From: Amoebophrya sp. A120
Taxonomy: Eukaryota > Protista > Dinoflagellata
Reading direction: 5' to 3'
Assembly: GCA_905178155.1 (NCBI GenBank)
Contig: CAJINV010000008.1
Coordinates: 1,240,001 to 1,304,000, forward strand
DNA: 64,000 nucleotides
The notes under the pieces are model-generated. The model ran no database searches. It worked only from the letters and a program-made list of their open reading frames with translations, and had not been told where the DNA came from. Below are positions 4,003 through 63,390 of the stretch, one piece after another. Both the position numbers and the translations under genes were made by a program. Each line of letters opens with the position of its first letter. Within the stretch, counting starts at the first letter, position 1.

Positions 4003-6665
4003 ATGACGGATGTCGCACAGCTTTTCGAGGAGTTAGATCGCCTGCGTGACAGCGCACTGGACGGGGCGGCAGGCGGGAAACAGGAGAATACCCGGCTGCT
4101 GGATGTCCTGTTCGAGAAATTCACGGGTAATTTGGACGCCGTCTTGGAATCATGGCACCAGCGCATGGCTGCGCTGGAGAGCCAACTGATGGCGATAAAG
4201 ACGACCAAGGGAAATAATATTGACTCCGAAGTACTACATACCAGACGAGGCGTCTCCCATGAAGACTACGGTCGCAAAAATATCAACAACAATGCTCATG
4301 CTGTGGCTGTCGAAAATAAAAAATATTGCAATCATCGTGATGGGCTTGTTCGTCGCGCTACCACCCGATCCACAGCAGCAGAACAGGCCTCGCAACCGAA
4401 TCAGCACAGTCACCAGACGCAGAACTTTCTGTTTTACGAATCCGCATTTGGAGGGCAACATGAGGGCCAACGACAAGTGCAGGGTCCTTCTAGTACTCTA
4501 GTCGTGCGTCGCGACAGCTCCGAAAATCCGCGAAGCTCCTTCCCACAGCAACCGCCGCGTTTCCGCACACGGTCGACTGGAATCAGTAGGCCTGCTTTTC
4601 ACTTTGCCGCTGCGACAGAAAGCTCGCGCAGCCGCCGGGAAACCATAGCGGAGGAAGTCGCGAAGGTCGCGACAGTGGAGTCCCGTCCTCCTCCAGCACA
4701 GGCACGACCAACAAATAGAATGCTGAAGCCATCGTATTCCTGTCCGGGCCCGCCATCAATAAGTGCCACAGCGAGTAGAATTTCTCCGATTGCCGGGCTT
4801 GGGGATGGTCAACCTCAACACGATCCTGCTCCTGGCTGCTCTAGTGGGGAAATGGGACGACAACCGAAGGAAATCAGGACCTTCGCTGCAGCTACGTATA
4901 ATCGGCCAACGTTTATTTCTGAAGTTTTTCGTCCACCTGCACGTTCCTGGCTTCCGCCCGAGCAGCTGCCCATGAACAATTTTCTGACCGCCAGAATGGA
5001 CCGAGTCCGAGATGACCGCAAAATACTACGGCAAAGAAGCAGGAGCATTCAAGATCGGTGCAAAAATCTGCTGCGGCTAGAGCCACACCTGCAGCATGTT
5101 CATGTACATGGCACTGACAGAGGTAGGGATACGTATGGCGCCGAAACCCTTGGCTGCCTGCCGGCGGAACAACAAGATGTCGAACAACTACGGATAAAGC
5201 ACGAACTCATTTACGCGGAGGAGGTCCGTCAAAAGCGGGAGTACACAAAAAAGATGCGACGGCTTCAAGAAACGTTCTGCTCACCCTCGACGAAAGCGAG
5301 CGGAGCAAGCGGTAGAGGTTCTACTTCCACCTCGTCTTCAACATCGACCGATGCAACCAAGCTCAAAAAAATGCCGCAACCTTTCGCCTTCACCGGGCTA
5401 TCACACAAAACTACACGACACACCAGGAAAAACACAAATTTGCGTTGCAGTTGTTGGTGTCACAAAGACAAAACTAGCCTCTTTTTGGCCTACAGATTTT
5501 CTTGCCACCTCGTTTTTAGTCGCTAACTTGCATCACGAACTGCATTCCGCAGCAGGCCAGCACATCAAGATTGCCGGTCATCTTGTAGTCTCCGCGTCAC
5601 AGAGTGAAGAAGACTTCTGAGACAATTGCAACTACAACTTAATTTCTGGTTGTATGGGTGTCATTTTCCCCATGATACGGGCTGCAGCAATTTGATGCCG
5701 CCTTCGCCCGGCTCCACGAGTCCTTCGGCATCAGAATGGACGCGGTCCGCGCGGCCCTGCACCACGCAAAAACGACGGCCGCCAGCGTGAAGCACGACGA
5801 ACGCAAAGTGCTCCAGAAGATCGACGCTGCGTTGACAAAAGCCGCCGAAATGGCGACGAAGAAGTACCTATCAAATGTAGGAGTGTCTGGGTCTGGAAGA
5901 ATTCATGTCTGTCATGCTTGTCTGGCATGACTCTTAAATCTGTCATGCACGTTACCCAAGAGCTCCGTTTTTCTGTGATGCAGAAGCGCAGTTTGTCATG
6001 CAGAATAGGCAACACCTAGGAGCTCAGAAATTTGTCATGCTGAGCCAGCATTTGTAGCCTCATCATGAGACGCCACCCAGCGTCACAAGTTTCCAGACCC
6101 AGACACTTTTGCTTTTGATAGTACCTGGCTTGCCCGCAGATATACGAGAAAATCCATCTGCGGGAGGAGTTGAAGTATCAACATATGCATTGCAAAAGTA
6201 ACGTACTAGTAAATTAATTGCATTACAAATTTTAGCAAGAACAAAAGTGAAATTTGTAATGCTGTTTTAACTTAGGAGGGAGATTTGTCATGCATATTTG
6301 CAATTAGTACGAGTGCGATACTTTTGCACTTGATACAACTCCAGGCGAAGCAATTCGAGAAGTCCAAGGAAATGTTGAATACAACGACGCGAGGAGGTTC
6401 TACTTCATCTCCAACAAGCAAAAATGATCGGACGTCGATTATGTCGGGCGATTTCTTCTTTGGGAAGAGCCAAAAGTTCCAAGAACAACTGCATCAGGAA
6501 GTAGATCAAGGTGAAGAAGCCGACGCGCATGCCGAAATGCTGACACTGCAAAAACTAGCCCGTGACATACTACATTTCTGCGAAAATACTACGCAGGAAG
6601 TAGGGCGAGCTATCACCTGGGGCGGTCTGCCTTACGTCGAAGTGCTTCTTCTCGAGTACATGTAA
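4003..6665 (+). CDS. Hypothetical coiled-coil/low-complexity protein interrupted by three introners
   Basis: ORFs 4003, 5736 and 6285 join in frame once each TIR element plus 5 nt is removed (TGL|QQFD, KKYL|ACPQ, KYQ|LQAK). Confidence 0.7.
5399..5677. mobile_element. Introner (TIR element), TSD CGGGC
   Basis: cgggc|tatca...tgata|cgggc with degenerate longer inverted repeats; removal restores the frame. Confidence 0.8.
5869..6120 (-). mobile_element. Introner family A (reverse orientation), TSD GTACC
   Basis: About 30-bp TIR tatcaaa.g.a..agtgtctgggtctggaa; interior motifs are reverse-complementary to the 11685 copy. Confidence 0.9.
6184..6335. mobile_element. Introner family C, TSD CAACA/CAACT
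   Basis: TIR tat....tgcaaaagta.cg.act.gta; similar to 28720-28870 in sequence and length. Confidence 0.85.
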
Positions 6666-7642
6666 AATGATTTAGAAACAACGGCAAAAAGAATAAGTGA
6701 AATGTCAAAGCAGTGCTGTGATTTTTTGTTATTTCCGGCACTTTTCTGTCGTAAGAAAAAAAGAATAAGAAATGAATGCACTTGCCGCAACAAGATCGAG
6801 ACGCTTGTTTCTTCTTGTATGATTCATTTATCTTCCCGGGCGAATGAACAAAGAATGCAGCATCTGTCGCAGCGGCAGCGACCTGCTCGACATCAAAATA
6901 ACTGGTTTCTAGAAGATGTAATTTAGGTGCATCCCATGCCTACCATGGGCGTTTTGAAACAATCTATAGATACACAATCCCAAAAGCAAAGCCATAAGCT
7001 GCTAGAGGACCAGCATCCTCAGTTTCTGCTTTAGTCGTCTCTTGTGCAAATGTGCGACAGGCACATGCAGCATGTGTGTTCGTTCCAACATCAAGAAAAG
7101 ATCGCCTACAACTTTTCTTCATCGCGAACAGCCAAAGATGCGTGTTAGTGTACTAGATCCGTCGTCCTCCCTGAGGTAGGTTAAAAATCGCGGTCGCGGC
7201 GACAACTTGACTTCGACTTGGCATCGTCGTTACTTGTTGTATTGTTTCGCCTCGGCAGGCCCAGGCTTGCTGCGTAGCAGATCACGCAGACACAGGCGAT
7301 AGGATAGAAGCTCTTTGTAATCTGAAGGCAGTAGCGGGCACAGCTTCATCGGTCGAACCACAATCTGATCCTGTGTATGTGTCTGTCTTGCAACAATGAA
7401 TTATTGCAGTCCGTATTCGACCGCAACATAGCATGAGTCTTGTGGTATAAATCAAGACGATATTAACGCCTGCAGATATGGTTGTTCTGCTATTGTCTAG
7501 AGTAGGTCTAGTACCAGTTTGACCCTTATCAACAAGTTAATATGTGACCTGTGTGTGTTATCTTAGTATTCGTTTTCGATTCCTTCTCTTTTTCTCAATG
7601 ATCTAGCTAGAATTTTCGTATTTCAAGCAGAAAAAAGAAATA

Positions 7643-9520
7643 ATGTCGGATAGCGAACAGGAATTCGAGTTCGAGTCGGATGGCGAGATTACACAGGACG
7701 AAGATGAGGATGAGGACGCTATTGCGATCGAGAACCATTTTTACGAGGCGGATGATCACAAGCTCAACAACCCCGCGCATGCGCTGCAGCAGTTTCAGAA
7801 GGTGGTATCTTTGGACAACGAGCGGCAGCGAAAGAATGGCGGCGGCGGCCGACAGAGCAACGAGCAGTGGAAGTTCAAATCTCTGCAGAACATCGTGATT
7901 CTTGCGGCGCGCGTCGGCCAAACCGACACGATGCGCAACACCATGCGCGAGGTGCTCTCGCTGTTGGGGTCGGTGAGCAGAAATGACGCGCAGGAGGCCG
8001 TAAACTCGATTCTCGATCAAATTCTCCAACCCCTTCTGCTGCTGCAAGGTACTAGCGAAGTGTGCGTAGATGGTGCAGCACCACCATCATTACACGGCAG
8101 CAAAATAAACCAGCCGGCGGGTGCGTTGCCAGTGATACTGATCGAGATGTATGAAATGACTTTGGACCACCTGGAGAAAGACGACAATCAGTTTTCCCTT
8201 TGGCTCTCCTCCGTGATAAAGTTGTGCAAACTGCATTTGCAATCCTTCGAGAAAAGCGGCAATGAGCAGGACCGCGGGAGCCTGAAGCGGTTGATTCCAA
8301 AAATCTACAGCGTAATCGACAGAAATAACAGCACTTCTGCTGGATCTGGAGCAGGGACAACTACAACATCAACTACGTCTTCACACAATAACTTATTGCA
8401 AACTAACAGCACGCAGTGGATCGAAATTTACGCTGTGGAGATCCAGTTCGCGGCACTGATCCAAGATTTCCAACGGTTGAAGGAGTTGTATCCCAAAACC
8501 ATCGAGCTCACGTCCGCGATCGCAGACCCGCGGAACCTCGCCGTCATCCGGGAGATCGGAGGGCGCTACCTGTACATGCGGGAAAAGCAGTGGCTCCAAG
8601 CCTACAACGAGTTTTTCGAGGCCTTCCAGACCTACCAGGCGCTCGGCAACGGGAGCAAGGCCAAGCTGATGCTGAAGTTTGTGATCCTCAGCAACATGCT
8701 GGCCTGCTCGGATATCAACCCCTTCGACAGTCGGGAGGCCAAGGTGTACGCCGAAGATCCGGAGCTGAAGAAACTGATTCAACTGCGGCAAGCGGTAGAG
8801 ACAAACGACGTGGACGGACTGAACGAACACTTGGCACACTTTTTGCAGACGGAGAAGGAGATTTTCGCGGACTTTGAACAAGAGTTGAGAAGTGTGACGA
8901 GGTCGGGCATTGTGTTGCACCTCCTCACGGCGTACCAAAAAATATCGCTGTCCTACCTCGCGAATCTGCTGGAGGTGCCCGAGGCAGAAACGCTGCACCT
9001 CGTGAAAACCCTGATACTCAACGGCCGGCTAGACAACTGCCTTGTAGACGAAGTCACGGGATTTCTCGTGCGTGTCCGAATGCCCGACGAGGAGGAGGAA
9101 GAGGAAGACACGAAAGACGACAACTCCTCCAAGAGGAAAACTCTAGTCCAGGATCTGCAGCAGGCACGACAGTTGGAAATGGGCAAGTGGTTGGAGAGCC
9201 TAGACAGAATCAGCTTTAACTTGACCAACAACGCGGCCACTTCTATCTCGCTATTCTCTGGGGGCGGAAGCGCAGCCTCGTCTTTTTCGAACGCCGGGGA
9301 CACGCCTCTGCTCGGTCCCAGTGCAGCGCCGCACGGAGGAATTATGCCGCCAGGTGGGGGTTTACTGGGTTCGGCAATGGACGACCACCTGGGTGGTCCG
9401 GGCGACATGATGGAGCCGGCTGCATTCGATTTGTCAGCGGAACCAGCGGGCCAGCAAGATCTTCTGGATGACCCTGCCGGATTGACACATTATAACTCAA
9501 CGCAATTTTACCAACAATGA
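7643..9520 (+). CDS. CSN2: COP9 signalosome subunit 2 (PCI domain), intronless
   Basis: Motifs IENHFYEA, WKFKSLQNIV, IEIYAVEIQ, AIADPRNLAVIREIGG, AYNEFFEAF and INPFDSREAKVY. Confidence 0.9.
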   Translation: MSDSEQEFEFESDGEITQDEDEDEDAIAIENHFYEADDHKLNNPAHALQQFQKVVSLDNERQRKNGGGGRQSNEQWKFKSLQNIVILAARVGQTDTMRNTMREVLSLLGSVSRNDAQEAVNSILDQILQPLLLLQGTSEVCVDGAAPPSLHGSKINQPAGALPVILIEMYEMTLDHLEKDDNQFSLWLSSVIKLCKLHLQSFEKSGNEQDRGSLKRLIPKIYSVIDRNNSTSAGSGAGTTTTSTTSSHNNLLQTNSTQWIEIYAVEIQFAALIQDFQRLKELYPKTIELTSAIADPRNLAVIREIGGRYLYMREKQWLQAYNEFFEAFQTYQALGNGSKAKLMLKFVILSNMLACSDINPFDSREAKVYAEDPELKKLIQLRQAVETNDVDGLNEHLAHFLQTEKEIFADFEQELRSVTRSGIVLHLLTAYQKISLSYLANLLEVPEAETLHLVKTLILNGRLDNCLVDEVTGFLVRVRMPDEEEEEEDTKDDNSSKRKTLVQDLQQARQLEMGKWLESLDRISFNLTNNAATSISLFSGGGSAASSFSNAGDTPLLGPSAAPHGGIMPPGGGLLGSAMDDHLGGPGDMMEPAAFDLSAEPAGQQDLLDDPAGLTHYNSTQFYQQ

Positions 9521-10152
9521 AGATGAGCCCGGCCATCGGCGAGGACGCTCCTACACGACCCAGACATCGCCGTCACGGAACGTTCCTGTTCCTCGGCGCA
9601 TCATCAATAACTTAGTGTGTCTGTGAAAGTGGAAGATGATGCACGTGTTGACGATATGTCCTGCTGATGTTCGGGTGTGGTTTCACTGTTACCACCAATC
9701 TGAATCTTTTTTGTAGTTGGAATGAAGAAAATCCAAATCGAAATCGAATTCGACAGGCCTCCTCGTACAACATCAATTGTTGCAGCGCTGGTGGCTGCGA
9801 CCTGTTGCGAAGTAAAATCGCGATGGCATCATAGTCGGCATTTCGAAGTTCTTCGTCATACGTAGTGAGGGTACGAGCGTTTTAATCTATCAGGCTGTTT
9901 GCCATGGTGGAGGCCCTCGTGAGGCCATAGCAACAGCATGCGGTAAGGGTTTTTCTACGAAAGCGTTGCTCTTTGTAGGCGTCACGCAGGGTTAGCGACA
10001 TTTCAATCTGTGCCTACTGCACGCAAAGCTGCAAGTTGATTAACTTTTAGGATTGGTATCCGCTCTCTGATGCATGCGCACAACTTCATCGAAAATTATC
10101 TTCGCATGCTTGACTGAAGTCTGTTGATCTTTGTTGATCAACCTATGAACGG

Positions 10153-13100
10153 ATGATGAGCCACCTGCTTCTTCTTGTTTTGAATCTTCTTGGTTTATTC
10201 GCAATTTGTTGCGTAGGTGCAGCCACTATCGAACTTCCATCCAACGAGGATTTGCGGCGCGCTGTGGAGCTGCATGGGCAGAAAGTTGCACGTGCTACAA
10301 AATTCTACGACGATCAGATTCGGCGCGTCACTCGGAACGGCCAGAAGCCGCAATTTCTGGACCCCGCAGTGCATCCTAATCTACCGCCAGACTCGCGGTT
10401 TAACGGGGTTTTTCTGTCGCAGGACCTGTACCGAGAACTGTTCAAAGATGCGGACAAGCACGATTTCATCGCAGTCATTGAACTGCTTGCGGCCATGTCC
10501 CGCGGCTATTTTCACGATGTCGCTGAGCTCCAGCGACAAATTTTGGATGCTCCTGCTTCAGCTGAAGGCTCGTCGGAAGTGGTGGCAAAGGCACAAGAAT
10601 CCGCCCCGAGAAGGTACTGGTCTGCTACACGCTGTCAAAGGTCTTCCCTTTTCGCCTTGGCCTATTATCGGCGCCATAATGGAGCCGGGACAACTTCTAC
10701 TTCCACGCGAAAGCAAAAGCCTAGCGAGTCGGTGGAAACTTCTTCAAACCGGACCTCTGACCTGAGGATCGAGCTTAGCAGCAAAAGCTTCGCGTCGTTT
10801 GCTCGACGCTTTAACCATTTTCGTTTTCCACGGCTATTCACCAGGGCGGACAGCGGACGCGGTCACAGGCTGATTACGCAAAAAGCGGCAAAGGAACTGC
10901 GCACAAAAGTACGAAACCGAACGTGAATTGGACTAGCAAGATCGGATAGCGCTCGAAGCAAGATCGGATAGCGCTCGAAGCAGATCAATGATAATGTGCT
11001 CTTGGCTCGTCCGCACACGCGTAGATAAAAACACCATGCGTAATCTTCGTGGTGTATGTGAAGAAGCTCTCTGCAGCTAATTCATGAAAGCAACGGCAAA
11101 GCCGAGTTGTGAACGTCAACGTTTTTCAACCTCGCTGCTACAAACGCTGAGTTATAGGCTCTCATCGACCTTCTTACCAGATCCGTATGGTTTTTCCTGT
11201 GCGTTCGAGCACAGCACATTGATTGACGCAATCAAGGCATTTTTAGCACTAGCACAGCTCTTGAAGGATTCCAATTCACCGGTTGTGGGGCTATATAATA
11301 AACCGCCGTCTCTACTTCGTCCTCGCCGCTGGTTTCGCAAAGACAAGGAGCAACCGGCGTCGCTCGCGATAACAGCAAAACGGAGGACGGTGCTGGTGTC
11401 CCTGGTGAAGATGCGAAGGGCCGCGACGAGGACCCGATTACCTCTGTGCCGGTAGCGACAACCGCGGGAATGGAGAGGTGGCAGTCGCTAGCAAGCCCGA
11501 ACCGACAAGCCGATCCTTGCTCGGAGGCGATCGGTACGGTGCTGCAGGTGACTGAATTTGTGAACGAAAATCGACGCCGGCCTGGAAGCAAGCGCCCGCC
11601 GGAAGATCCCCGGACATTCCAGAGGACCTGTCCTCGTGAGTTTGCGGGTGCTGTAACGCGACTCGCGATCGAGCAAGTCTTCCGTATCAAATGTAAAAAT
11701 GTCTGGGTCTGGAAGAGTGCGCGATTTGTCATGCTGCTTTTCCACGACCTATGAGGTCTGGAATGCCGGACCTAGCATGACAGATTCTGCGAGACCATTC
11801 TAATGCCTATCCTGCATGAGAAACTACCTCCCGACTTGTTCAAAACTGGGCGACTTTTGGCAATCATGCAACACAGATTTTTGCATGCTGCAGATTTAGC
11901 ATGACAAGTTGCAATCTTCCAGACTCAGACATTTTCGCATTTGATATTCCGCACGGTTCAGCGAAATCAGGTTCCCGCTACAGCGATCCGCGGAGTGGAC
12001 AATATCGACGCACTACTGGCGGGTAGACGAAGGGACGAGGAGGACCCCGACCACAACAAAAACGTCGGAAGCAGCATCGACAATGGTGGCGCCGCTAGGG
12101 CAAGCGCTGTTGGTCGTCCCGGCGCTAGGGTCGACCACGCTGTTCACCACGATGATAGCATGGATAACAACAACGCTATTGACCTGGCACAACTGACCCA
12201 GTTTTTGCCGAGGCTTTATCGAAAATTCGTCCCTTCCTTCAATGTTGCAGTAGAGTCAACAAGTACTACGGCAAACTCCATGAGCGCCGAAGATCATCAT
12301 GCCCGGAGGTGCTATGCACACGTGACTGCTCGCTACGTGGTGCAAGTGGCGGCGATACAGCGCTACTACATGTGCTCCAGCTGGGCTCGGAGCGACCGAC
12401 ATCTGCGGGATGAAACGAAGCGCCAGCTGCTTTACGAAGATTTGTACATGGCCGAAAACTGGATTGCGAACGAGAACATGGACAACATGATTCTTTTGAC
12501 AAACCGAAGTATCATGCTCGTGAACTTCAATTCAACGACTTCGGTCCGTGCTCGTTTGTCGCCTGACGCAAGAACGCACACGACGGCTCCCCCTTCTGTT
12601 CACCTCCCGGGTGTGGGCACGGACACCAAAAAACGCAGCGATTCTTTTTCTTGTAGCACCGCTGCAAGTGGTAGTGGTTCTACTAGTTGTCCATCTACTT
12701 CTACTTCTCGCAACATGGATGTGTGGCTTCGCTTCCCGCATGATCGCAACCATCAAAGAGCTGACACCCTGCAGCGCGTGCAACCGCACCAGCGCATCGA
12801 CGCTTTGGGGAGGAGGTTTCGGCAAGCACTAGCGCTAGAGTCACAACAACGTCAGACCACGTTCTCCACGAGTCGTCGTGGTTTCGCAGAGCAGCATCGT
12901 TCCGCCGGGGAGCGCAGAGAGCCTCAAGAACACAACGCCGAAATCAATTCGGAAGTCGAAGCATCATGCTCCTCGTCACAAGTAGTACCGCAGGAAGACA
13001 ATCATCAAGTTGGAAAGCACGCTGGATGGCTGCTGGATGCTACTCAACCACAACCAAAGCCGCGTAATATAGAGCAGCTGCGTCGTGACGGTGACAACGT

Positions 13101-14349
13101 CAAGAAGTGTCAAAGATACCCCGACCCCAGAACAACTGGGAGCGTCGACGAGCTGCTCTTTCTAAACGCGGGGGCCAACCACGGGCACTGGTTGGATGTC
13201 GTGCGAAATTTCTGTGCGCCGCCCTATTGTCCAGAAAAGCAGTTGCTGCTGGGATTCGAAATTCAACAAGAATTAGTTGAAAAAATGCAGCGGCGCTTTT
13301 TCGATCGTGGGGAGCCGGCGGAGCAGATGGAGCCCGAAGAAGTCCCCAAGCGGGCTAGAAGTATTTCGACCAATGAAAGAGAAGCGGCTCCTGGGGAAGA
13401 ACCTTTTACACAGACGAATGGCCATTTTTCCACACGCCAGCGCATCGAGATTCATCCTTACGGATGGGGAGCCCGTTCGGAGAAAGAAGTTGGCCTTCGT
13501 GTCCAACATGACATTTCCGATGAAATCGCCCAGCTCGAATTCAGCACGAAGAAGGTTCAATCTGCAACGAAGCTAAATAACGTGGCGAAGAGAATGAAAA
13601 TGGTCGAAGTCAAGACCCTGGAACAAGTGATGCAAGAGGTCGAAGTCAGAATGAATATGAAAGCCCGGCGGGAAAGAGAAAGTACATCAAAAAGCATCGA
13701 TGGCGCATCCGCTGCGTCCGAAGGGACATCTTCACCCTCAAAGTCACAGGAAAATGTCGCAATGCCGGCTTTTCTGACGATTGTGGACGCGGAATTTTGG
13801 GACCTTGAGATTGTCAAAGGTATGCACCTGGAGAACGAGATAAATCAAATGCGCTTCCCGCTCTTCCAGATCGAGTGGAATCTGCTGCAGTTGAAGATTG
13901 TGTCAGATACAACCACCGACCACTCCGAGCATTCTGGAGCTGCAACTGGAGCCGCGGCTGCGTCTTGGAAGTCGTCCGTAGAGGCCGTTGCGCTACTTCT
14001 CACCAAGTTTGGCTATGATGCGTTTTTTCCTACCGCGCAAGGATTTGCGTACGCGTCCCTGGAATATTTCGAAATGGAATGGGAGAAAGTGGAGGAGTGG
14101 AAAACAGAAAAGCGGCGATACGGCGGAAGGAGCAGTAGATCCAACGCCACAACACGACAACTACCTCACAGGACTCTACTCTCCAACCTCGACCAGCACC
14201 CGCTACATCCAATACAACCCTCAAATCTGGTTTTCGCGCATCGCACATACTGCAACGAACATGTTTTGAAATTTCTCTACCACTCTGCCATAGACCTCGT
14301 GCAGAAGGATGTGCACCTGACCGATACGAGACTTTCAGCCAGGAGCTAG
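10153..14349 (+). CDS. Signal-peptide protein with C-terminal FkbM-like SAM methyltransferase domain
   Basis: Hydrophobic N-terminus; motifs FLNAGANHG, FEIQ, VKTLEQV, IVDAEFWDLEIVKG, FQIEW. The model needs a GC-AG intron 10869-11157, a 1-nt frameshift near 11300 and removal of introner 11685-11946. Confidence 0.6.
10935..10986. repeat. 22-bp tandem repeat (AGCAAGATCGGATAGCGCTCGA x2 plus partial) inside a GC-AG intron
   Basis: Two exact adjacent copies followed by a partial third copy. Confidence 0.9.
11685..11946 (+). mobile_element. Introner family A, TSD TTCCG
   Basis: ttccg|tatcaaatgtaaaaatgtctgggtctggaaga...tcttccagactcagacattttcgcatttgata|ttccg; removal gives QVFR|TVQR. Confidence 0.95.
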
Positions 14350-15087
14350 CATAGTAGATAAGAACTTCTATCACGCAGACGCACACTCTGGACGAGGATT
14401 GTCCTCAGCCCTCCCCCCAGCATTTCTGGGCGAAAGCTAAAGTTTGTTTCGATACCAACAAACGAAAAGCAGATAAATATCCAACACTTTGTCTTTTGTA
14501 TGTGTACTTGTTCGCGATGAAGATGAGCAACAAGTTGAAGTTCCGGCCTTTTGTTGTCGTTGTGTTTTCCCCGATACTTGTAATAATCTGAGATTTCCAC
14601 CACGCTTCGTGTGCGATTCAAAGAAGCAGCTTTAAAACGAAGAACAGTCAGAAGGGCACGTTGGCGGAGCAAATGCAAATCTTGAAAGTGCAGCGCCGTC
14701 TTTCTCTTTGTAAAAAGTGAAGATCCACCAATGTGAATGTGTCAGCGTTTGTCAGTCGGCTCACACGACTCAATATCCTCTCAAACGCGTAAGATATTCC
14801 ATTGGAATTAATGCCACGGATAGAGGCATGAGGAAGTATAGAACTTTTACGGTGTAGGTTCTGAATGGATCCTCTTGCTCGCACCGCATTGTAGAAAAGT
14901 CAAACGTAGTGGTGACACACTTGTACGAAAAGAGCCACCTTGTTGATCTCTTTAGCCGCGACACTTGAAATGATGAGGCACCCCACCGAGACGAACACCA
15001 CGACCGCGCAAAGGTAGTTGGCCGCACAATAGAATTCACTCACGCGATTCTACTACGCCTCCGATTCAGCACACTCTCTCCCGCAAT

Positions 15088-52333: not shown

Positions 52334-55300
52334 ATGGATCAGAATCCATTAGACCATTGTGGCACTGCTAGTAGACGGGACGGCAGCTCCACGGACCCGG
52401 GAAATGGGGAGGCGGTCATCGGAATCGATGACCTGCCGGACCACGCCGCCATTGCCGGGGCCGCCGGTGTTGCAGGTACATCAGACGAAGATCACGGTGG
52501 TGGTGCGCTAACTGATATGAAACCTCGGGGGCGCGATCCTCGGAGACCACCAGTGCCCGGCGCTGATCCGCCACTCCAGTCCGCCCCATCTGCCATAGCA
52601 GGAGAGAGCGATGAACCTGAAGAGCCGCTTCCACCATCGAGCGCCCTGGTAGATGATCAACAAGGAGGTTTCGCACCGCAAGCAGGTGCGACGTCGGCGC
52701 ATCTTGCCGGCAGCTTTCTGGATGAAAATCCTAACGCCTTTTACCCAGAGAGCAACCTGCCCTGCAAGACGGGCATTCTCGTCCCTATGACCATCCAGGC
52801 GGAGAAGCGGCGTCTTTTTCACACCCAGATGCCGGAGCACCTGGAACCTTGCTTCCCGCCACTTGAGGTGCCACCGACAAACCCATCAGGCGGCGGCCCA
52901 GGAGGTGCACAACCTGTGCCCGTCCCCGCCCCGCCTTTTGGCTCGTCCGCGGGCGGATTCCATACCAGTGGAGGCGCGGGCAGCAGTCGCATGGGAACGG
53001 CGGCAGGCGGTGGGGGCTCTTCCTCGACCTCTGCCTACCCACCACCCTCGAGCAGTGCAGCTTTTCTGGGCCAGCACTCGACTGCACTGGGTGCTGACCG
53101 AGAGTCAGCTGGAGCAAAGACGACCGGAGTGAGTGACTACAGTATGGGCACCAGTGGGAACATTCTGGAGGAAGTCTATCGTCACGAGGCGGACCGCATC
53201 GCGAATCCGGAAAAGTGTATGAATCGCATTGTCTACGATTCGGTCGACCCGAGCCCTTTCCTCCAACAAAGAAACGGCAATCCAGAGGGTGAAGGCACAA
53301 CCAAGGGACCCTTTTTTTCCGAAAAAAAGCGGAAGAAGCACAAAGAAAAATCAAGCACAACTCCAGCATCGAAGCTGCTTACGGGTAACACTGGCTGCGT
53401 GACGCACGAGCTGGATCCGTGGTATCCGCTCGCGAACGCTCCTCGAGTCTCAGAGCAATTGCTGCACGTAAACTCTTTTTCGCGCAACACGAGCAAAGAT
53501 TCCTCTTCGTCGTCCGGTACCAGCAAGGACAGCAACCGCAGCACGGTAACGAGCGTGGCCGAGCTGCAGAGCAGCAGTTCCTCGTCTGCCTGTATCGGAA
53601 AGAAAATCTGGTGCGCCTAAGTGCGATCGATGAACCACGGCACGTCCTCGACGTATTCTAGTCATCCAAGAAAAGCAGGATCCGATCTTCCCATCTCTTC
53701 TAAGTAGGTGGCGAGTATCAACAGAAGGGAGGAGTAGATATGAATAGATTTTGTAATATAATAACTCGCTTGCACCTACACCTGCACACCTAATAGTGCG
53801 TCGCTTCGTCGTCCAGATTTTCGAGCGCGAAGCCGATACTGGCAGTGATTTTTTTCAGGCACATTTTCCACCACTTTGTATTCAAAGGCGGTCCTGCTGT
53901 GCCTTTTTCATCTCGCCGTGATTTTATTGTGGCAGCACTTCTGCTTCTGACGTTCCATAGCTTGTTCTTCGACTGCCGCGCCAGTGAACCTTTGTGGCAC
54001 GACGACCTGCAATGGAGGGATAGGGAACAAAACGAGCACCACATCGAACAAACTGAAAAACAACTCGAACTGCAACCCCATGTCAAGCAGTGCTGCCTCC
54101 GGTAGTTGCTCGCTGCGACAGGATCATGATGCCGATGCGGACACGACACTGCAGTTTGAGTCGAGATTCGAGAGCGGGAACCTGCGGCGCGTCGTCCAGG
54201 TTTCGGCGTTCGAATATGACTTGGTTTTGAACCCGGACTACAACACGACGTCGCACGCGCAGTGGTTCTATTTTCGTGTGGCGAACACGCGGAAAAACGT
54301 GCGGTACCGGTTCAATTTGATCAACATGATCAAGCCCACGTCCTTGTACAACGAGGGCATGCGGCCCGTGGTGTACAGCATGCGCGAGCACAACGACCCG
54401 AGCATTGGCGGGAAGTGGATGCGCGCGGGGGAAAAGTGTGCCTACTACCAGAACGGTATTGCCAAGCTATCCCACGAAAAAACTGCTTCACTGTGATGAT
54501 TTTGCAAGATTTGCATCACAAGTTTGTTACACATGAAGAAGAAAACTTGGCATGCGTGCTTCCTAAGGGAAAACACTGCTAAAAATCCAATGTCTTGCAT
54601 GTGTAGCAAGACAAACACATTTGCGTTCCGTTCTATGCATCACAAGTTTACAGTGAAACAGTTTTTTCTTGCGATACAAGCGGCGCGGGGTCTACTACAC
54701 GCTCACCTTTCAGATCGCCTTTTCCTACGACTTCGACGTGGTTTACGTGGCATATGGCGTTCTCAAATGTTACATTCTAAATTGTTACATGAATTTGTAA
54801 TGCGAGAACGGCAAAAGTGAATGGGGGAAGCTTGCGCCTTTTGCATCACAGATTTGGCACTGATTTACATGCTGTTTAGCCCCTTCGAAGATTTGTCGTG
54901 CGAAGCAGCTTAATGGTGGCGATCTTGATGGCAAATTTGCATGGCAAATCATGTAACAGTTGAGAGTGTAGTAACATTTGAGAATCCCATATGGCGCAGT
55001 GCTATCCGTACACCTACACCGACCTGCAGTACGATTTGTCAAAAATCGAGGAGGACGCGAAGCCCCGCAACTGCTTCCGCCGCCGCAAACTCTGCGAGAC
55101 GCTGGCTGCGAACGCCTGCGACCTGATAACGATCACAAACTTCGCGGCGCCTCCACCCGCTAGCGCAGCGACCGGTGTGCAGGGGAAAAACGGCGCGTCA
55201 GCCTCAGCCGGCAGCAGCACAACTCGTGCCGTCTCATCTACAACAGGCCCTACAACCGCGACGGCGACGTTCAATCACCTGCGAGATCGGTTCGGCGTGG

Positions 55301-57053
55301 TTATCACTGCGCGGGTCCACCCGGGGGAAACCAGCGCCAGCTGGGTGATGAAGGGGATTCTAGAGTTTCTGAGCGGACCGAGCCGCGAGGCGGAAATTTT
55401 GCGCGACAAGTTCGTGTTTAAGCTGATCCCCATGCTGAACCCTGATGGTGTGGTGGTGGGAAACTACCGCTGCAGCCTAGCTGGCCTAGACTTGAACCGT
55501 CGGTGGCAGGAGCCAAGTCGCAAGCTGAATCCCACGATCTACTTCACGAAAAATCTGTATGGAAGTGGTGCGAGCTGGCGGGAAGTCGTCATTTAAATGG
55601 TGACTAGGTAGGTTTTTATGTGGTCGAATAGCGGTCGTAGCGCTACTTACCGAGGACTTGCAGCTCGAACGAACGCTGTCGCGTGCCGCTCCTTAGCGAA
55701 AGAAAGAATAGCTGGCCTTATTTTTCCTAATTTGTACGGCTTTACCTTTATATGCGTGGCCCGCCCAGCATTGAGCGCAAGCTTGTACAAGTACGAGGTC
55801 TATTTTGAAAAATTAGCGACTCTCTGCATGGCTGCACTCCGATAATTTGATCAAGCGACTTCTGGAGGATCGGGACATTGCGCTTTTTCTCGACATTCAC
55901 GGTCACTCGCGGAAGAAAAACATATTCATGTACGGAAACATCCCGGCGGAGGAGCAGGAGTTTGGGGTGGAGCGAATCTTTCCGAAACTGCTGTCGCAAA
56001 ACTCTGACTACTTCTCCTTTCCGGACTGCAACTTCAAGCGGGTCAAAGAGAGCACAGCGCGGTGTGTCGTCTACAAAGAATTCGGGATTGTCAACTCGTT
56101 CACGCTGGAGGCAAGTTTTTGCGGCCCCAGCATCGGACGGCTCAGGGACAACCATTTCAACACCCATCATGTACATTTGTCATTGGCCAATTGAATTCTT
56201 ATTTATTTGTCTTTCTCTTTACATGTGTTGCAGAAAATGATCTTTTCGAGCTGTACCAACGTTGGCTCTAGGCTGTGAGTAGGTCAAGCAAATAAAACGC
56301 ATCGAGCAGAGTAGTCTGGATATGGCGCCGACCAGAAACAATATCCAGCACATGCACGGCATAGAAAAGTGTACGCTTTAGTCTTAGAAAGATATCGGCG
56401 TGTTGCCGGAGCAGTATGCTGCATCAAATTAACCGAAAAAAAATCAGTTGGAGCGAATGGGCGCGGATTTGTGTAAGACGCTTCTCGATTACGAGAACCA
56501 GCAGAAGCTGTCGCAACTGGCGAAGGAGTTGGCGCAGAGTAGCGGTTCCATCAATTGCGACAGCGAAGATGGGAGCGACGTCGAAGAGGTGCCGAGCGAC
56601 ACGGGCGGCGCAGAGAACGGCAATCGAGGCACCAACTTACAAGTGGTGGGTAGTGGAGCAACCGCTTCGAGCAGTCTGGCACACGGTGGTCAAGGTCAAC
56701 AATATCTGGGAGACTCAACAGCAGCTGTCTCAGACGGTGTATTCAATGATCATCAAGACGGCCGGGTGGACTTACTCGGCAACAGTGCGCGCCGTGGAGG
56801 GCCTCCTGCGCAGCATTTGGCTACCTCGAGCGCGGTCGTTACTACGACGACACCACGGGGTGGGTACTACAACTCCACCGGCGCTGCTCCTCTAGACGCG
56901 GGTGGAAACGTTAATCTTCTTTCGGTTTTCAGTGCGAGTGGTGCGGAAGCGAAGAAAATGCAAGTTCCGTCGACGCCGGTGAAAAAGAAGAAAAGTGGGA
57001 ATTCGGAGAAAAAGCAAAAGTCCTTGACCAAGAAGACCCGTAGTTCCAACTGA
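52334..57053 (+). CDS. Cytosolic carboxypeptidase (M14D, Nna1/AGBL tubulin deglutamylase family)
   Basis: Motifs FESRFESGNL, QWFYF, YYTLTF, CYPYTY, ARVHPGE, PMLNPDGV, GNYRC, DLNR, DIHGHS and SFTLEAS; 4 introners plus a GT-AG intron at 56171-56447. Confidence 0.92.
53593..53959. mobile_element. Older introner, TSD GCCTG/GCTTG
   Basis: tatcggaa...ttccata; removal joins ORF 52307 to ORF 53984 in frame. Confidence 0.7.
54468..54676. mobile_element. Introner, TSD CAAGC
   Basis: 27-bp TIR tatc.ca.gaaaaaactg.ttcactgt; removal gives IAK|RRGVYYTLTF. Confidence 0.93.
54753..54991. mobile_element. Introner, TSD TGGCA/TGGCG
   Basis: TIR tatgg..ttctcaaatgttac; removal gives VYVA|QCYPYTY. Confidence 0.92.
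55558..55844. mobile_element. Older introner, TSD ATCTG/ATTTG
   Basis: tatggaagtggtgc pairs with gctgcactccgata; removal gives TKNL|IKRL. Confidence 0.75.
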
Positions 57054-58356
57054 TGAAGTTCCTTTATTTCATCCCTGAGCTCCCGTTCATGATCGCTGAC
57101 GATCAGCACGAGAGTGCGGATCATCAAGTGGAGGTGGAGCCGTGGAAATATTAAGCCGTGGTAGTTCTTTCTACTATGTCTATGTGGCCCCCGCCCGTGT
57201 TTCTTCGCTATAACTTTGCGTCGTGTCTTCACGCAAATAATGTGATCCAGATTTCGTGTCTTTGACTTCGTCTCTTCGCAGACACGGTCGCAAAAACATG
57301 CGCGTCGTGACCTCTTCTTTATTTCTCATATTTGTGATCGTTCGAGTTGCAGCTATCGAGGAACTTCTCCGCGCCCCTTCGCCGCTGATGTTGCATTTGG
57401 AAGCTGGGGCTACCTCATCGTGAGCAGATAGTGAAACATAATATCGCCGGCGCTCTTGTTGCCGCAATCTTTACGCAGGTGGAACCATGAGTACAGGGAA
57501 AAAACAGAAGAACGCACCGGCAGTTGCATCAGTCACTTACACCATTACAGTTGCGGGGCTTCTCTGGCCGCAAAGAGTAGCATGATCCAGGTGCCTAGAA
57601 CGGTGCAGGATGAAAACGAAATTGAAACACAAAGACGTGCTAGGAGGCGGCTATGAAATAGCTGCAGGGTTTCAAAAATTTATCGTAAGAGCGATCCCGA
57701 TCGCGATTGCTCTTCGAAATTAGGCCCGCGCATTGATTAACGCGACGCGACTGTAACTGCACTTGGACGTTGTATATATGATTGTTGCATGTGTACTACT
57801 ACTAGTGCTAGTGTCATAGAAGTCATCACGAGATGGAAGCACAAGCTTTAGCAGCTTAGCTTTTGTGGATAGAGAATAGCCAAAGGAGCGGACGCAGAGC
57901 AAGGCACTCACAGCGACGGGTCAGAAAGCAAGAACGTCGGTCGCCGGAATATCGTGCTTGAGAAGATTCAAGACCAATTATAATCGTCGCAGAAACTCCT
58001 CCATGCCGCCCCTCCCGCTAGCACTAGTGATAGACAAAGATTGCTCTTCGGGTTTCATTTGCTACGAACTTATCATACCCCATTCGCGTGAAGATGAGAT
58101 GATTTAGACTTTATAGACACCATTGCTTCTTCGTATTTTCATTTTCGTAAATAGCTGCGTCTGATTGCGATTTCCGTATATCTGGGAGCAAGCTTCTTGA
58201 TTCGTGACTAAGTAAAACCAGAGGGAGGTCCACGGGGCCGGGGGTAAGAGGAGCCGCAGGCACGCATTCTTCCCCAAGGACGTGCTTTCGGGATTACAAC
58301 TTCTCATCCACCCTAGAGGAGCAATCGATTCGTCGGCGAAAGGAGAAACCGGCCCC

Positions 58357-60376
58357 ATGACGACGTCCTTCCAGACGATAGAGCCGCCTGCCGGCATGGG
58401 AGAGCGGCACGCAGGACCTGCACTTGCGGCGCAGGCTCAGATGAGTATGACGCATCGGCAATTTAGCGACGAAGAGATAAAGGAGGTACTACCTCCTACG
58501 TGGTCATTCTAATGTTTACCCACGTCTTTGACTTTGATGACCCTGCAACGTCGGCGCCTCTGCGCTGTCCCCAGGAGAAAGCGATCCTCTCAGTATTGTA
58601 AAGAGTTTCTAATAGAAACTCTTCAGTATTGCGAAAAGGAAAGTGACAGTAGCATTGCGAAGATGCGGTCGCTTATTAAGGCACTTTTCAACAACTTATG
58701 ACAGGCATTTGAAACGTTTGATTTGGACAACAATAATTTTGTCGGAGCGGCAGAAATCAAGCACATTCTTGGCCTTGTGGGCGAGAAGGCAACCGACGAT
58801 GAGGTCGACGAAATGATACGGATGTGCGACGCCGATGGAGACGGGCAGGTCACGTTTGACGAATTTTACAAGTTGATGTCAAACCCCTACAAGGAGCGAC
58901 CACTCCCCACGATGCCCAAAACGCAGTTCGTTATCGCAGCGCATCCCCGTCTGGGGCCCACCGCACCGAAGGGTGGCATCGATAAACCTGTGCCAAAAAC
59001 TAAGGTGGCCGAGGTTCTGCAGGACGTCATCACGCAGCTAGCGGGCGGTATACCTCCATCAACACTTTTTGATGTACCAACTGAATTTGGCAGTGCTGAA
59101 ATATAATTACGCGGGCGCGCGCTATTGAATTCGTTAGAGTTGTCTCAGGACGAGTTGGTTTTTTGCGTACATCCACACGGCCACTTCGACGCAGAACGAG
59201 GACCGGGACTCGTGCTGCAACCATAGATTTTTGTGAGATTGCTTCGATGTCGACGAATGCGAATGGTATTTTTATTTCTTTTCTCGTCCTCATCTCAGGT
59301 GGTCGGCTGAAGCCAAGTCACATCAAGAAAATTTACAAGTCGTTTCAAGCGGTGGATAAAGACGGCACGGGTTTTGTAGATTACCCCGAGTTCCTGGAGG
59401 TCCTGAAGCAAAACGACTCCGCCATCATGAAAGAGGTCTTTAAACTGTTCGACTTGGATATGGATCTGTCAGGATTGAAATCGTCAGAGTTGAGATGATT
59501 TGTGACGCATGCAATGGATACTAGTTACGTTAGAACTACAGTTTGTAGTCGCTGCGTGACAAATTTTGTCCGTACGGGAGGCCAATTTGTCATGCTGCTT
59601 AGGGCAAAGGGGCTCCCCTCTGTGATGCTAATCAGCAGCCCAATTCTCGACCCTTACCAGCACTACAATCTGCCTCCCTTGCGTCCTCTGCAAGAGAGGC
59701 AATTTCTGTGTTGCATTCTATGCAAGACAAACTATTGCAACTCTGACGATTTCGATCCTGACGCTTCCATATTGGACTTCAACGGGACGGTCGAACTGAA
59801 GGAGTTTGTGACGGTCCTTTCCTCCTTCACCACCGCAACCAAGACTGACAAACTCAAATTCGCATTCATGATGTTCGTATGCGAGGCGGAAGCAAAAACT
59901 CCTCGATGCTCACGTGAAGGTTGTATGCGTGAAGACGCGAAGAACGACATGCAGGTCTATGCAAATAGAAATAGTTGTTGCAAGTAGGAGAAGGACCTGG
60001 ACCACTAAACCTAAAGCAAGAAAAAAATGATGACTCGCTCGCCTTCTTCGCTATTGCAAGTATGATGTGGGAGCTTCTTCTAAATTCAAATTCGCATTAT
60101 CGTCGATGGGGGCGCTGTTCCGCTGCATAGCTGGACGAGGACGGAAGCGGGCAGCTGGAGCGTGCAGAGTTGGAGCGTATTCTGCGCGCAAATTTTATGA
60201 CCGCGAACCTCCTCCAAAACGAGATTGAACGCAAGGCGGAGGACATATACAAAGCCATCGGGCTTGACAGCGGCACGCCTTTGACGTACGAGCAGTTTAT
60301 GGACCTTTCGAAGTCCCACATAGAGCTGCTGTACCCTGTCGCACAGATAAAAAAGACCATCAACGATCGTGCGTAG
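58357..60376 (+). CDS. Multi-EF-hand calcium-binding protein (calmodulin-like pair plus calcineurin-B-like region)
   Basis: EF loops [48 protein letters not shown] and [12 protein letters not shown]; GT-AG introns 58486-58704 and 59048-59298 plus two introners. Confidence 0.85.
59459..59771. mobile_element. Introner, TSD TTGGA
   Basis: 34-bp TIR tatgga...gtcaggat.gaaatcgtcagagttg; removal rebuilds the EF loop FDLD|FNGTVE. Confidence 0.95.
59878..60129. mobile_element. Older introner (TSD degenerate, GTTCG/GCTGG)
   Basis: tatgcgaggcggaag pairs with gttccgctgcata. Confidence 0.7.
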
Positions 60377-61434
60377 ATGAAATGAGAAGACGGAACAAGA
60401 GGAGGCGTTGTTCCTTCGGCGAATTCGCAGAAGCAGAAACTGAAACCGGGTAGCTCCTGTGCAGTGCAGACGCGATTGGGCTGATCTTAAGTGGAGATGA
60501 GAATGTTGTAACTGGACTTCACTTTGATGTGAGAACGGCTGTCCTCGTCCGCCAGGCCTTAATCGCAGAACAGCAAACGTGAGCAACAAATGTGTGGTGC
60601 AAATGGAAGTTGGTTTCAGTACGCGAAACTGCTGCTTGCGAATGAACTTCTTTCGAAGAAAAGGCGCTTCTTGATTATCCGCTTCATCGGCCCCAATATT
60701 TGAAGATTTTCTTGAACTTGATGTTTCCTACGAGGGCGTCAGGCTCCCGGTCGAACCCGGAAGTTGCGAGCAATTTTGACTGCAAATTTGAACACCGGAG
60801 GAGCCGCTCGAAAGAGGCGTCAGCACTTTCATTCCACGAAGCTCACCACAATGAATCGGTCCTCTGCATCTGCAATTAATCGCAACGTCGCACGCACATC
60901 AAGATGCCGCCGTAAAAATATACAGGAAAAAAATGAAAATCTAAATCACTGCTGCGAGAAAGATAAAGGAGAAGCTTCGGAACAAGCTCATGACAGTTCA
61001 TCTTCACACAGATGAGGCGGCGCGTTCTAAGAGGTTAGCTTTTGTAACTGGATCAGAAATAGCAATAGGCTTCCATCGTCGACGATCAAATCTAAAGTCG
61101 AAAGCAATATGCGATATTCGGTTGTGTCCGCGTCTTGATTGCTTTTCGGTTATGATCATTATCGGTTACAACTGACCTAAACCGACGGCTGTTGATGGCA
61201 GACGTTCCCAGTGCCGGTGAGCATTGCTTCAGGCTTTGGGCAGTTCCTCCTATTGTCTCTTTTCTTTCGTGTCTTTTTTGGTTCACACCTGGCGCACTTG
61301 GCGATCATGTTGAGCTACAGTAAATTATAATTACCTCGGATATTTTTGATTTTGTGATTTTCATTTTGATAGGGAATTGGTTGGGTGCGCGGAGGTCGAG
61401 TTTGTCGCATCGGTCGCAAGACCGCCAGAAGAAA

Positions 61435-63390
61435 ATGTCGACCTCCATCGACATTCCTAAATATGCGTCCGAGTTCGTCGGGACCTACATCCTGGTGCTC
61501 ACCATCGGATGTAATGTCCTCGGTGGCACCGCGGTGTGGGCGGTCACCTCGATTGCCTGCGCTCTGATGGTAAGCATCTACGCCTTCGGTGCAGTCTCCG
61601 GGGCGCACTTCAATCCTGCGGTCACACTCTCCATTGCTCTCACGAACAAAATGCCCGGGGGGTTTAAGGAAGCTGCCATCTACATGGTACCACTCTGCAT
61701 TTGGAAATTGTTCTTCATTGGCGGCGTCCGTTGGAAAAAGAAAAAAGAAAAAACACAAGCTTCGTATGGAGATTCGATGATGTTATGGCTGGCAGTGAAG
61801 CTGCAGCTGTAGTAGCTGTCTTCTAAAAATTGTTCGTGTCGTACTGTAAGAGACCTCGAACAGACACTGAAAGTCGAGGAGGATGACATTGCCATAAAAT
61901 CGTAAAGACAATCTAAATCGCAGGCCGTGCAGCTCGCGGGCGGTATCTGTGCTGGGTTTACCTACCTCGGGCTGTTCAAAACGGCATTTGAACTGGGCCC
62001 AGGAAAGGGCCACACCTGGCTCGCGGCCGGCGTAGTGGAATTGCTGTACACAGCCATGCTGTGCTTCGTGGTGTTGAACGTGGCCTGCGCGTCGGCCAGC
62101 ACGGACAACCAGTACTACGGGCTGGCCATCGGGTTTGTGGTTGTCGCGGGAGGCTATGCGGTGGGCACCATTTCCGGGGGTTGCTTCAACCCCGCCGTCT
62201 CCTTCGGTATCGACCTGGCCAGCTACGACAAGGGCGTCTACATGTGCTTCGTGTACCTCGTGTTCCAGATGATCGGCGCCGCGCTCGCGGCCGGGCTCTT
62301 TCGCCTGGTCCGCGCGGAGGACTTCGGCGGCGTGGCGAACACGCTGAACAGCAAGTTGATCGCGGAAGCCGTCGGAACCTTCGTACTCACCCTCACCGTG
62401 GGCTTCAACGTGCTCACGGCCTCCGCCGCGGGCGCGTACTCCATCGGGGCCAGCTTGATGTGCATGATCTACGCGCTGGGGAACGTTTCTGGCGCGCACT
62501 TCAACCCGGCGGTAACGCTGGCCGTGCTGTTGTCCGGGCGGGACATCATCTCCACCAACGATGCGCTGAAGTACATGGGGGTGCAGACCCTGGCCGCCAT
62601 GGTGGCCGGCCTCACCTACATGGGCGTGCTGGGCATGTCTTTCCGCGTGGCGCCGGGACTGGGCTGGTTCAAGACGGGACTGGGCGAGGTCGTCTACACC
62701 GCCCTGCTCTGCTTCGTTGTGCTCTCGGTCGCCACGGTCAAGAAGCCGTCCGCTGATATGTTCGGCCTCGCGATCGGCTCGGTTATCACCGTCGCGGGCT
62801 TCGCCGGCGCAAGCATGGGAGTGGTACATTTTAACTTATGTTCAGTTACCACTGTGTTTTCTCTTTTTTCTTACATTCTGTCCATGCCGTACTGAACACG
62901 GATTGTTTGACAAAACTAAATCTAAAACGACAAAAATTAATAAAGGTATTGAACCCGGCGTACGAAATTGTAATGCGCGCATTCACAAGCTCACTGCGTC
63001 CAAACCCGACATGTGTTGTTATGGATTGCCTGTCTGAACTGGTTTACAAGAATTCCAAATGCCACTCGTTACAGGAAATTCCTCTACAAGTTCATTTCAT
63101 GCTTAAAAGTACATTGTGCGTGCATCTATAAAGCCTGGTCCTGCCAGATATGACCATTTTTTCGTTCGCGGTTAAATTGCGCAGAGCGGCGATTGCGTGG
63201 ACTTTCGTCTTTCCATAGCGGTGTCGGAATCGGCATCGATTTCACGAACATGGTGAAAGGCGGACACTTCGGAAACTCTCTGCTGTATACCTTGCTGGAG
63301 GGTGTCGGCGCTGCCGCTGCCGTTGGACTCTTCAAAACCGTCCGCCCTGCTGAGTACGACGCCGTAAAACCCGGAAAGTTGATGCCGTAA
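61435..63390 (+). CDS. Tandem (two-MIP-domain) aquaporin
   Basis: Four NPA boxes (HFNPAV, CFNPAV, HFNPAV, VLNPAV); the last lies on a micro-exon at about 62946-62960; introns 61687-61924, about 62824-62945 and about 62960-63221. Confidence 0.9.
62961..63217. mobile_element. Degenerate introner
   Basis: tacgaaa...cgcattc versus gattgcg...tttccata; removing the element plus 5 nt gives NPA|VGIGID. Confidence 0.55.

Follow-up and report, generated by a model that had tools for sequence, protein, structure and literature searches.

Short DNA-transposon-like introners of Amoebophrya sp. A120 and a candidate fixed register for their removal from RNA

The 64,000-nucleotide stretch of Amoebophrya sp. 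A120 contig CAJINV010000008.1 analysed here (hereafter the window) carries numerous introners, mobile-looking elements lying within exons that are absent from the corresponding transcripts. Our results suggest that the A120 introners are short non-autonomous DNA transposons that generate a 5-bp target-site duplication (TSD) and are removed from RNA in a fixed register, probably by a modified spliceosome; we assign this reading a probability of roughly 0.8. Transcript contigs and a DNA run covering parts of the window show, for the elements they cover, removal at the RNA level and retention in the DNA.

A GH2 exon of the window is 100% identical to an annotated protein (P0001) that bears the name Amoebophrya sp. 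A120, and the original prediction had been right to point to Amoebophrya, where introners have been described. Because of this identity, and because the elements match the inverted-repeat (IR) signature given by Farhat et al. 2021 (PMC7789003), they are the published A120 introners, already known in the same strain. The parts of that paper used here describe A120 introners of many families with an IR of TAT-N7-AAA and direct repeats (DRs) of 3–5 nt, survey 66,565 RNA-supported introns of which 65% are non-canonical, discuss an origin from elements like miniature inverted-repeat transposable elements (MITEs), credit exon joining to the hairpin and state that the intron border ‘remains unknown’. 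The host genome, an IR of TAT-N7 followed by an A-stretch, the DR, the division into families and RNA-supported removal at non-GT-AG junctions are all found in the window as well. Gozashti et al. 2025 (PMC12130899) list 58 A120 rows; in the roughly 25 considered here, most families are terminal-inverted-repeat (TIR) DNA elements of ‘Unknown’ superfamily with an automated TSD of 2–5 bp or none, while fam38 is listed as Ginger with ‘5-bp TSD, TA/TA Termini’ and open reading frames (ORFs) similar to Copia/Gypsy. The introner system and the TSD length of this one family are thus already in print.

Element inventory and reading frames

The window was scanned for elements of 70–700 bp confined to the termini TAY...RTA, with TIR score cut-offs of 25 and 30. 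A perfect 5-bp direct repeat combined with a TIR score of at least 25 was found for 12 elements (0–1 in each of 10 shuffles), and a repeat matching at 4 or more of 5 positions combined with a score of at least 30 for 14 (0 in 10 shuffles). Since the perfect 5-bp repeat by itself is at chance level (26 real against 13–28 shuffled), it is the TSD and the TIR together that constitute the signal. The total for the window is 16 TIR elements: 13, among them a 2,207-bp compound copy at 28927–31133, have perfect TSDs, and three (6184, 25871 and 54753) have 4/5 TSDs. The thirteen perfect and mutually different TSDs of the original prediction are therefore recovered as 12 from the scan plus the compound copy. 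Its count of more than 20 elements holds only when seven decayed non-canonical introns lacking a clear TIR or TSD are added, giving 23, all on the forward strand and in 8 genes rather than the 9 or more proposed; its size range of 110–370 bp becomes 109–321 bp for the TIR elements, the compound copy excepted.

Neither GT-AG nor GC-AG borders can be obtained for any of the 16 TIR elements at any sliding register within the TSD, as had been claimed, and AT-AC borders are possible for one; about 15 other introns of the window are ordinary GT-AG introns. Comparison by blastn confirmed families A (5869, 11685, 28927 and 33995, the likeness of 5869 to the other copies lying mainly in the TIR), B (three copies) and C (two copies), and added a pair, family D (6184 and 28720), that the original prediction had missed. 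Removal of an element plus 5 nt rebuilds FDL/DFNG, GEYGGIG/Y and VYVA/QCYPYTY (the slash marks the junction) and restores the EF-hand, GH2 and cytosolic carboxypeptidase reading frames, in agreement with the motif restoration first noticed in the EF loop and the other two genes. PDB matches back the assignment to the cytosolic carboxypeptidase family, the junctions lying outside the matched span.

The individual features are as follows. X1–X3 and X5 denote sequencing runs, P0001 is the annotated protein and P0002, P0004 and P0006 are homologs; z values refer to predicted hairpins, and a strand is named where one was assigned.

5399–5677, TIR introner, singleton; perfect 5-bp TSD, gapped TIR
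5869–6120, TIR introner with family A-type TIR; perfect TSD; loose end of a transcript contig leads from 6120 to the upstream exon
6184–6335, TIR introner, family D; 4/5 TSD; joint 6178–6336, 157 nt skipped, X1 and X3
10909–11301, forward strand, decayed non-canonical intron; G+TAC...ATA+4; X1 and X3 give exact joints; another 3' end lies at 11299
11685–11946, TIR introner, family A; perfect TSD; exact joint, 267 nt skipped, X1–X3; hairpin z −8.9
23001–23109, TIR introner, family B; perfect TSD; joint, 114 nt skipped, X1 and X3
25871–26056, TIR introner, degenerate A-like; 4/5 TSD; joint, 191 nt skipped, X1–X3
27784–28095, TIR introner, family C; perfect TSD; reading-frame evidence only
28720–28870, TIR introner, family D; perfect TSD; intron in P0001 with its border placed differently
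28927–31133, family A introner with a nested 1.9-kb insert; perfect TSD; missing from annotated P0001
29146–31077, nested insert; 13-bp direct repeat; 19-bp minisatellite at 30275–30578; no Pfam match
31656–31976, TIR introner in the GH2 gene; perfect TSD; missing from P0001; six near-full-length relatives in a second assembly
32883–32997, TIR introner, family B; perfect TSD; missing from P0001; P0002 colinear across the site
33995–34260, family A introner, reversed; perfect TSD; missing from P0001; P0002 reads through
34456–34565, TIR introner, family B, splitting GEYGGIG/Y; missing from P0001; P0004 and P0006 colinear
49098–49395, forward strand, decayed non-canonical intron; A+TAT...ATA+4, unslidable; X1 joint; no hairpin, z −0.8
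49463–49719, forward strand, decayed non-canonical intron; 5' T+TA, AT at −7/−6, unslidable; X1 joint
50781–50953, forward strand, decayed non-canonical intron; 5' T+TAT, AT at −7/−6, unslidable; exact X1 joint
54468–54676, TIR introner, cytosolic carboxypeptidase gene; perfect TSD; numerous related contigs in run X5 (DNA)
54753–54991, TIR introner directly before QCYPYTY; 4/5 TSD; DNA contig 54651–54834 contains both element ends at single-copy depth
55557–55848, forward strand, predicted decayed non-canonical intron; G+TAT...ATA+4; reading-frame continuity only
59459–59771, family C TIR introner of the EF-hand gene; perfect TSD; X1 record 3 has a gap of 605 nt, the predicted exon length once the element is left out
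59877–60133, forward strand, decayed non-canonical intron; G+TAT...ATA+4, register −1 or 0; contig piece edge at 60134 and length sum
62960–63221, forward strand, decayed non-canonical intron in the aquaporin gene; G+TAC...ATA+4, unslidable; exact X1 joint, including a microexon of 11 nt; no hairpin, z +1.2

Several neighbouring features were also observed. All recognised genes of the window (1–64000) lie on the forward strand, the kind of unidirectional cluster reported from Amoebophrya. A microexon of 14 nt at 62946–62959 encodes most of the NPA motif of the aquaporin between a canonical and a non-canonical intron, and a decayed left end of family C, with no matching right end, lies at 28210–28330 in the intron upstream of 28435.

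Removal from RNA and the splice register

Transcript evidence was drawn from contigs of runs X1–X4, and the regions covered by the runs were 6101–26100 and 44201–64000, with the GH2 region at 27–35 kb outside them. At all four TIR elements lying wholly in 6101–26100 the contigs skip the element plus 5 nt, and at 5869 a loose contig end ties position 6120 to the upstream exon. In 44201–64000, X1 skips four non-canonical introns, three in a transporter gene and the fourth in the aquaporin gene, and the EF-hand contig of the same run has a gap of 605 nt, equal to the predicted exons minus 59458–59775 and 59877–60133. Canonical and non-canonical introns are both skipped by a single X1 contig (record 2). 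The RNA-level check proposed for these elements thus gave transcripts lacking the element plus 5 nt for six of the 16 TIR elements, and transcripts without 6 decayed introns. A further joint, 62090–62274, was dropped, being present in both X1 and X5 and reflecting an internal repeat of the aquaporin.

In the GH2 gene, five further elements (28927, 31656, 32883, 33995 and 34456) are missing from P0001 exactly as predicted, and homologs are colinear across the last three of these sites. The annotation places a start in another frame (28435–28926) and cuts the 28720 element 7 nt short; because the GH2 frame extends upstream once the 28720 element plus 5 nt is removed, the 5' part of P0001 is probably truncated.

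Run X5 behaves as DNA, its contigs continuing unbroken through introns and into element ends. It keeps the three TIR elements it covers, with a depth at element ends of 49 against 43–46 in unique sequence, consistent with single copies, and no excision joint occurs among the rows listed. X5 is one sample, is possibly the source of the assembly, and its contigs lose rare variants. Programmed DNA excision resembling that of the TA-bounded internal eliminated sequences (IESs) of ciliates, in which the expressed DNA copy lacks the element, would account for the TA at both ends and for the precision of removal. However, since the DNA run keeps the three TIR elements that it covers, the elements are not excised in this manner, and we regard the existence of expressed copies without them as having next to no likelihood.

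The position of the cut relative to the element can be read at a few junctions. Base 5 distinguishes the two copies of the TSD at 6184 and 25871, and in both cases the base found in the transcript is that of the downstream copy, so the cut is not at the element edge and register 0 is excluded for them; at 59877 only registers −1 or 0 are allowed. Four junctions cannot be slid at all (49098, 49463, 50781 and 62960): all start with NTA, all have AT at −7/−6, and two of the four 3' ends are exactly RTA plus 4 nt. Among the transcript-supported non-canonical introns, 12 of 12 fit the 5' NTA and 10 of 12 fit TA plus 4 nt at the 3' end in the same register. At 10909 the 3' ends in two contigs are 2 nt apart, each 4 nt past a neighbouring ATA, the shorter intron causing a frameshift and occurring in one contig of depth 5. 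Canonical introns of the host start with GTA in 13 of 15 cases, and the part of Table S4 of Farhat et al. (PMC7789003) used here gives T at +2 in 9 of 9 predominant A120 motifs and TT in 9 of 9 for strain A25. The intron can thus be written as 1 nt, TAY...RTA and 4 nt, with cuts at −1 and +4 relative to the element; this is shown for few junctions and would extend to the rest. A literature search did not find this register rule in print, although the figures of Farhat et al. may bear on it and subscription papers fell outside the search. We regard it as a modest, testable addition that rests on few junctions and one RNA sample.

Several observations weigh against the proposed fixed-register removal of DNA transposons by a spliceosome. 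The contigs of X1–X4 derive from one sample of one study whose RNA label was guessed, and the raw-read RNA runs X7 and X8, with 2 and 0 matching reads, did not contain the organism. Direct RNA evidence covers 6 of the 16 TIR elements and not the other 10, neither 54468 nor 54753 has an RNA joint among the joints listed, and the joints at 6178, 22994, 25865, 49097 and 49462 are flagged ‘between: not known’. The P0001 annotation borders the 28720 element differently from the element plus 5 nt, the last A of RTA is missing from two of the four introns whose junctions cannot slide, the Table S4 motifs may carry an aligner bias, and the legend of Fig. 3 of Farhat et al. (PMC7789003), in the portion used here, describes splice sites as variable relative to the hairpin. 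Three of the six decayed introns keep 13–17 expected end pairs. Finally, no transposase was found among the ORFs searched, and no autonomous element was recognised in the window or in 153 loci of a second assembly.

Mobility and the machinery of removal

The second assembly was the one other public assembly matched by an end pattern of family A, with at least 159 stretches in a scan covering 13 of 64 parts; 153 loci (524 kb) were examined. Identity between its elements and those of the window reaches 95.6%, and it may be A120 itself or a close relative; two homolog searches with strict cut-offs for relating it to A120 returned nothing, so its results do not count as independent of A120. A TIR scan that did not require a TSD recovered 343 distinct elements (1 in the null), and the exact flanking repeat was 5 bp in 247 of the 343; three elements had a repeat of 4 bp and one had a repeat of 6 bp. 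Orientation was assigned with a codon model trained on the window, where it was correct for 16 of 16 elements; 292 elements had usable flanks and 189 could be oriented. The ratio of sense to antisense was 14:14 for family A and 6:7 for family D. The target bias is symmetric, with C at position 1 in 51 of 147 and G at position 5 in 53 of 147, and this mirroring led us to reject selection for a G at TSD position 5 that would provide a GT donor. An excess of mismatches at position 5, seen in 3 of 3 cases in the window, was not upheld in the second assembly (4 of 38 mismatches). GY-AG borders are possible in 10 of the 147 elements, against 6 in the antisense control.

The fixed 5-bp TSD of variable sequence, the TIRs and insertion in both orientations support an origin as non-autonomous DNA transposons. 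Together with the transcript contigs and the retention in X5, they support the view originally put forward that such transposons are removed at the RNA level. Spread via RNA, by reverse splicing of excised introns, could be envisaged from the position of all window copies within exons and from the fact that no transposase was found here or, in the portion of the paper used, by Farhat et al. in A120 (PMC7789003); however, the equal orientations, the symmetric target bias and the duplication fixed at 5 bp with variable sequence make this route very unlikely.

A motif, YTGYVAYGC, is shared by 338 of the 343 elements of the second assembly and by 22 of 24 clusters, and its occurrence peaks some 40 nt inside the ends. 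Of its 54 matches in the window, 46 fall within 5.5% of the sequence, a figure that is partly circular, the motif having been derived from these elements. It is missing from 25871 and from five of the six decayed introns that are nevertheless spliced, so a role in splicing is unlikely, and because most decayed introns have lost it the motif would better fit a transposase site than a splicing signal.

The search for the transposase itself gave no Pfam match to a transposase or integrase in 37 ORFs of the window, as originally noted, in 27 further ORFs of two nested inserts or in 68 of 134 long ORFs of the second assembly. Viral and prokaryotic collections gave 0 matches to the end pattern of family A. 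The second assembly contains five long TIR/TSD elements (457–1,104 bp); the one inspected (L023, 505–1608) is a family C introner with a nested insert of about 800 bp that has internal repeats and lies close to the position of the subterminal motif. The 1.9-kb insert at 29146–31077 likewise adjoins the shared motif inside a family A introner. Because the annotated protein P0001 lacks the entire 2.2-kb compound intron, introners may act as safe havens for other elements. A 2.6-kb insert at 38375–40957, with an 11-bp direct repeat and no Pfam match, lies inside a predicted GT-AG intron; by blastn it is unrelated to the 29146–31077 insert, and GCATG occurs in both duplicated targets. At another locus of the second assembly (L071, 2412–4801) an erythromycin esterase-like domain lies in frame beside ubiquitin-conjugating and RINGv domains.

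We propose that a transposase supplied in trans, probably integrase-like, would make a 5-bp staggered cut and insert the element in either orientation, recognising the shared ends TAY-N7-A-tract and the motif about 40 nt inside. The transcript, as shown for six of the 16 TIR elements, lacks the element plus 5 nt, which leaves the protein unchanged. At the 5' end of the intron, N-U-A-Y would resemble the GUA donors of the host with the G at +1 dispensable, and the 3' end would follow the terminal AUA by a constant number of nucleotides and would lack AG; since the ends are symmetric, the same signals would be available in either orientation. This motif-plus-spacer code would be read by a modified, U1-less major spliceosome.

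The main rival retains the same elements and register and replaces the spliceosome with a structure-guided endonuclease and a ligase acting at the base of the paired ends. Young elements have strong predicted hairpins (z −2.8 to −11.3), and three of the six decayed introns retain predicted end pairing; the introns have no AG and no evident branch signal, U1 small nuclear RNA (snRNA) was undetected in A120 in the part of Farhat et al. used here (PMC7789003), and the euglenid code N3-CAG...CTG-N5 has the same form (PMC12501133). The six decayed introns, however, have no strong predicted hairpin (z −0.8 to +0.9, against the +1.2 listed above for 62960), and 49098, 49463 and 62960 are spliced out with less than 1 expected end-to-end base pair. 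A long hairpin would help young copies but is probably dispensable in old introns. The 5' end moreover copies the host GUA donor, and U2, U4, U5 and U6 with 83 of 89 spliceosomal proteins are reported for A120 in the same part of that paper. We therefore consider spliceosome-independent removal unlikely, though a serious contender. A strong hairpin next to a 5-bp repeat is a classic substrate for template switching, and all of the RNA evidence consists of complementary DNA contigs from one sample, so the junctions could be reverse-transcriptase artefacts and the elements gene-damaging insertions. This is exceedingly improbable: decayed introns with neither repeat nor hairpin are skipped in contigs of depth 115 and 677, removal restores open frames with residues colinear with homologs, and the survey cited above (PMC7789003) reports non-canonical junctions as the majority of its RNA-supported introns. 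Removal by a modified spliceosome in a fixed register is the reading we retain.

Relation to known systems and implications

Relative to the description in the parts of Farhat et al. 2021 used here (PMC7789003), the TSD in the window is uniformly 5 bp rather than 3–5 nt, the cut fits one register rather than a variable one, some old introns are spliced although no hairpin is predicted for them, and the families are connected by one subterminal motif. Ginger family fam38, in the rows available from Gozashti et al. (PMC12130899), shares the TIR DNA class, the termini and the TSD length, whereas the window elements are 109–321 bp long and noncoding. IS3EU/GingerRoot elements have TA..TA termini, TIRs and a TSD of usually 6 bp according to the part of Kojima 2023 used here (PMC10045372); the termini are shared, in scans confined to TAY...RTA ends, but 247 of 343 elements have a TSD of 5 bp and a single one has 6 bp, and membership is not claimed because of this usual 6 bp. 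Our literature search found no paper joining Amoebophrya and IS3EU.

Classical TIR introners of Micromonas, Aureococcus and Symbiodinium are MITE-derived and carry or co-opt GY and AG, as described in the parts of two sources used here (PMC9860276; PMC11282704). As in A120, one TSD's worth of bases is lost with the element and the mRNA is restored; a GY-AG pair, in contrast, is available in 0 of 16 window elements and, in the second assembly, at little above the antisense control. A likeness in form exists to euglenid nonconventional introns, for which Nomura et al. 2025 (PMC12501133, used in part) showed the N3-CAG...CTG-N5 code by mutagenesis and for which spliceosome-independent, structure-guided removal is suspected in Euglena (review PMC11282704, used in part). 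Excision of these euglenid introns yields full-length circles rather than lariats. Both systems are non-GT-AG, and the complementary terminal triplets set a constant number of nucleotides from the euglenid cuts would have a counterpart in A120; the lineages are unrelated. Euglena uses CAG/CTG with spacers of 3 and 5 nt, whereas A120 would use TAY/RTA with spacers of 1 and 4 nt, a code that we infer; CAG at +4 to +6 and CTG at −8 to −6 are not present, the A120 ends being N-TAY and RTA-N4. A fixed-spacer terminal motif fits the 5' end of 12 of 12 introns and the 3' end of 10 of them, yet only four of the junctions are unslidable.

A broader proposal, which we hold tentatively and at somewhat short of even odds, is that a single code (one nucleotide between the 5' cut and UA and four between the terminal RUA and the 3' cut, with no need for a +1 G, an AG or, in old introns, a hairpin) serves the tens of thousands of non-canonical introns of A120, that one integrase-like transposase clade, recognisable by the common subterminal motif, drives nearly all families, and that the spliceosome works without the GU-AG pair. 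Any transposon with a 5-bp TSD and TA..TA ends would then be a perfect intron in either orientation, the U(+2)A(+3) rule would account for the TT-starting introns of A25, and the code would be convergent in form with that of Euglena. How introns without GT-AG are recognised is an open question in print, which a fixed register makes directly testable. Such a register would explain how insertion is harmless in either orientation and would allow the correction of thousands of A120 gene models, and if the spliceosome does carry out the removal, it would have lost one of its most conserved requirements.

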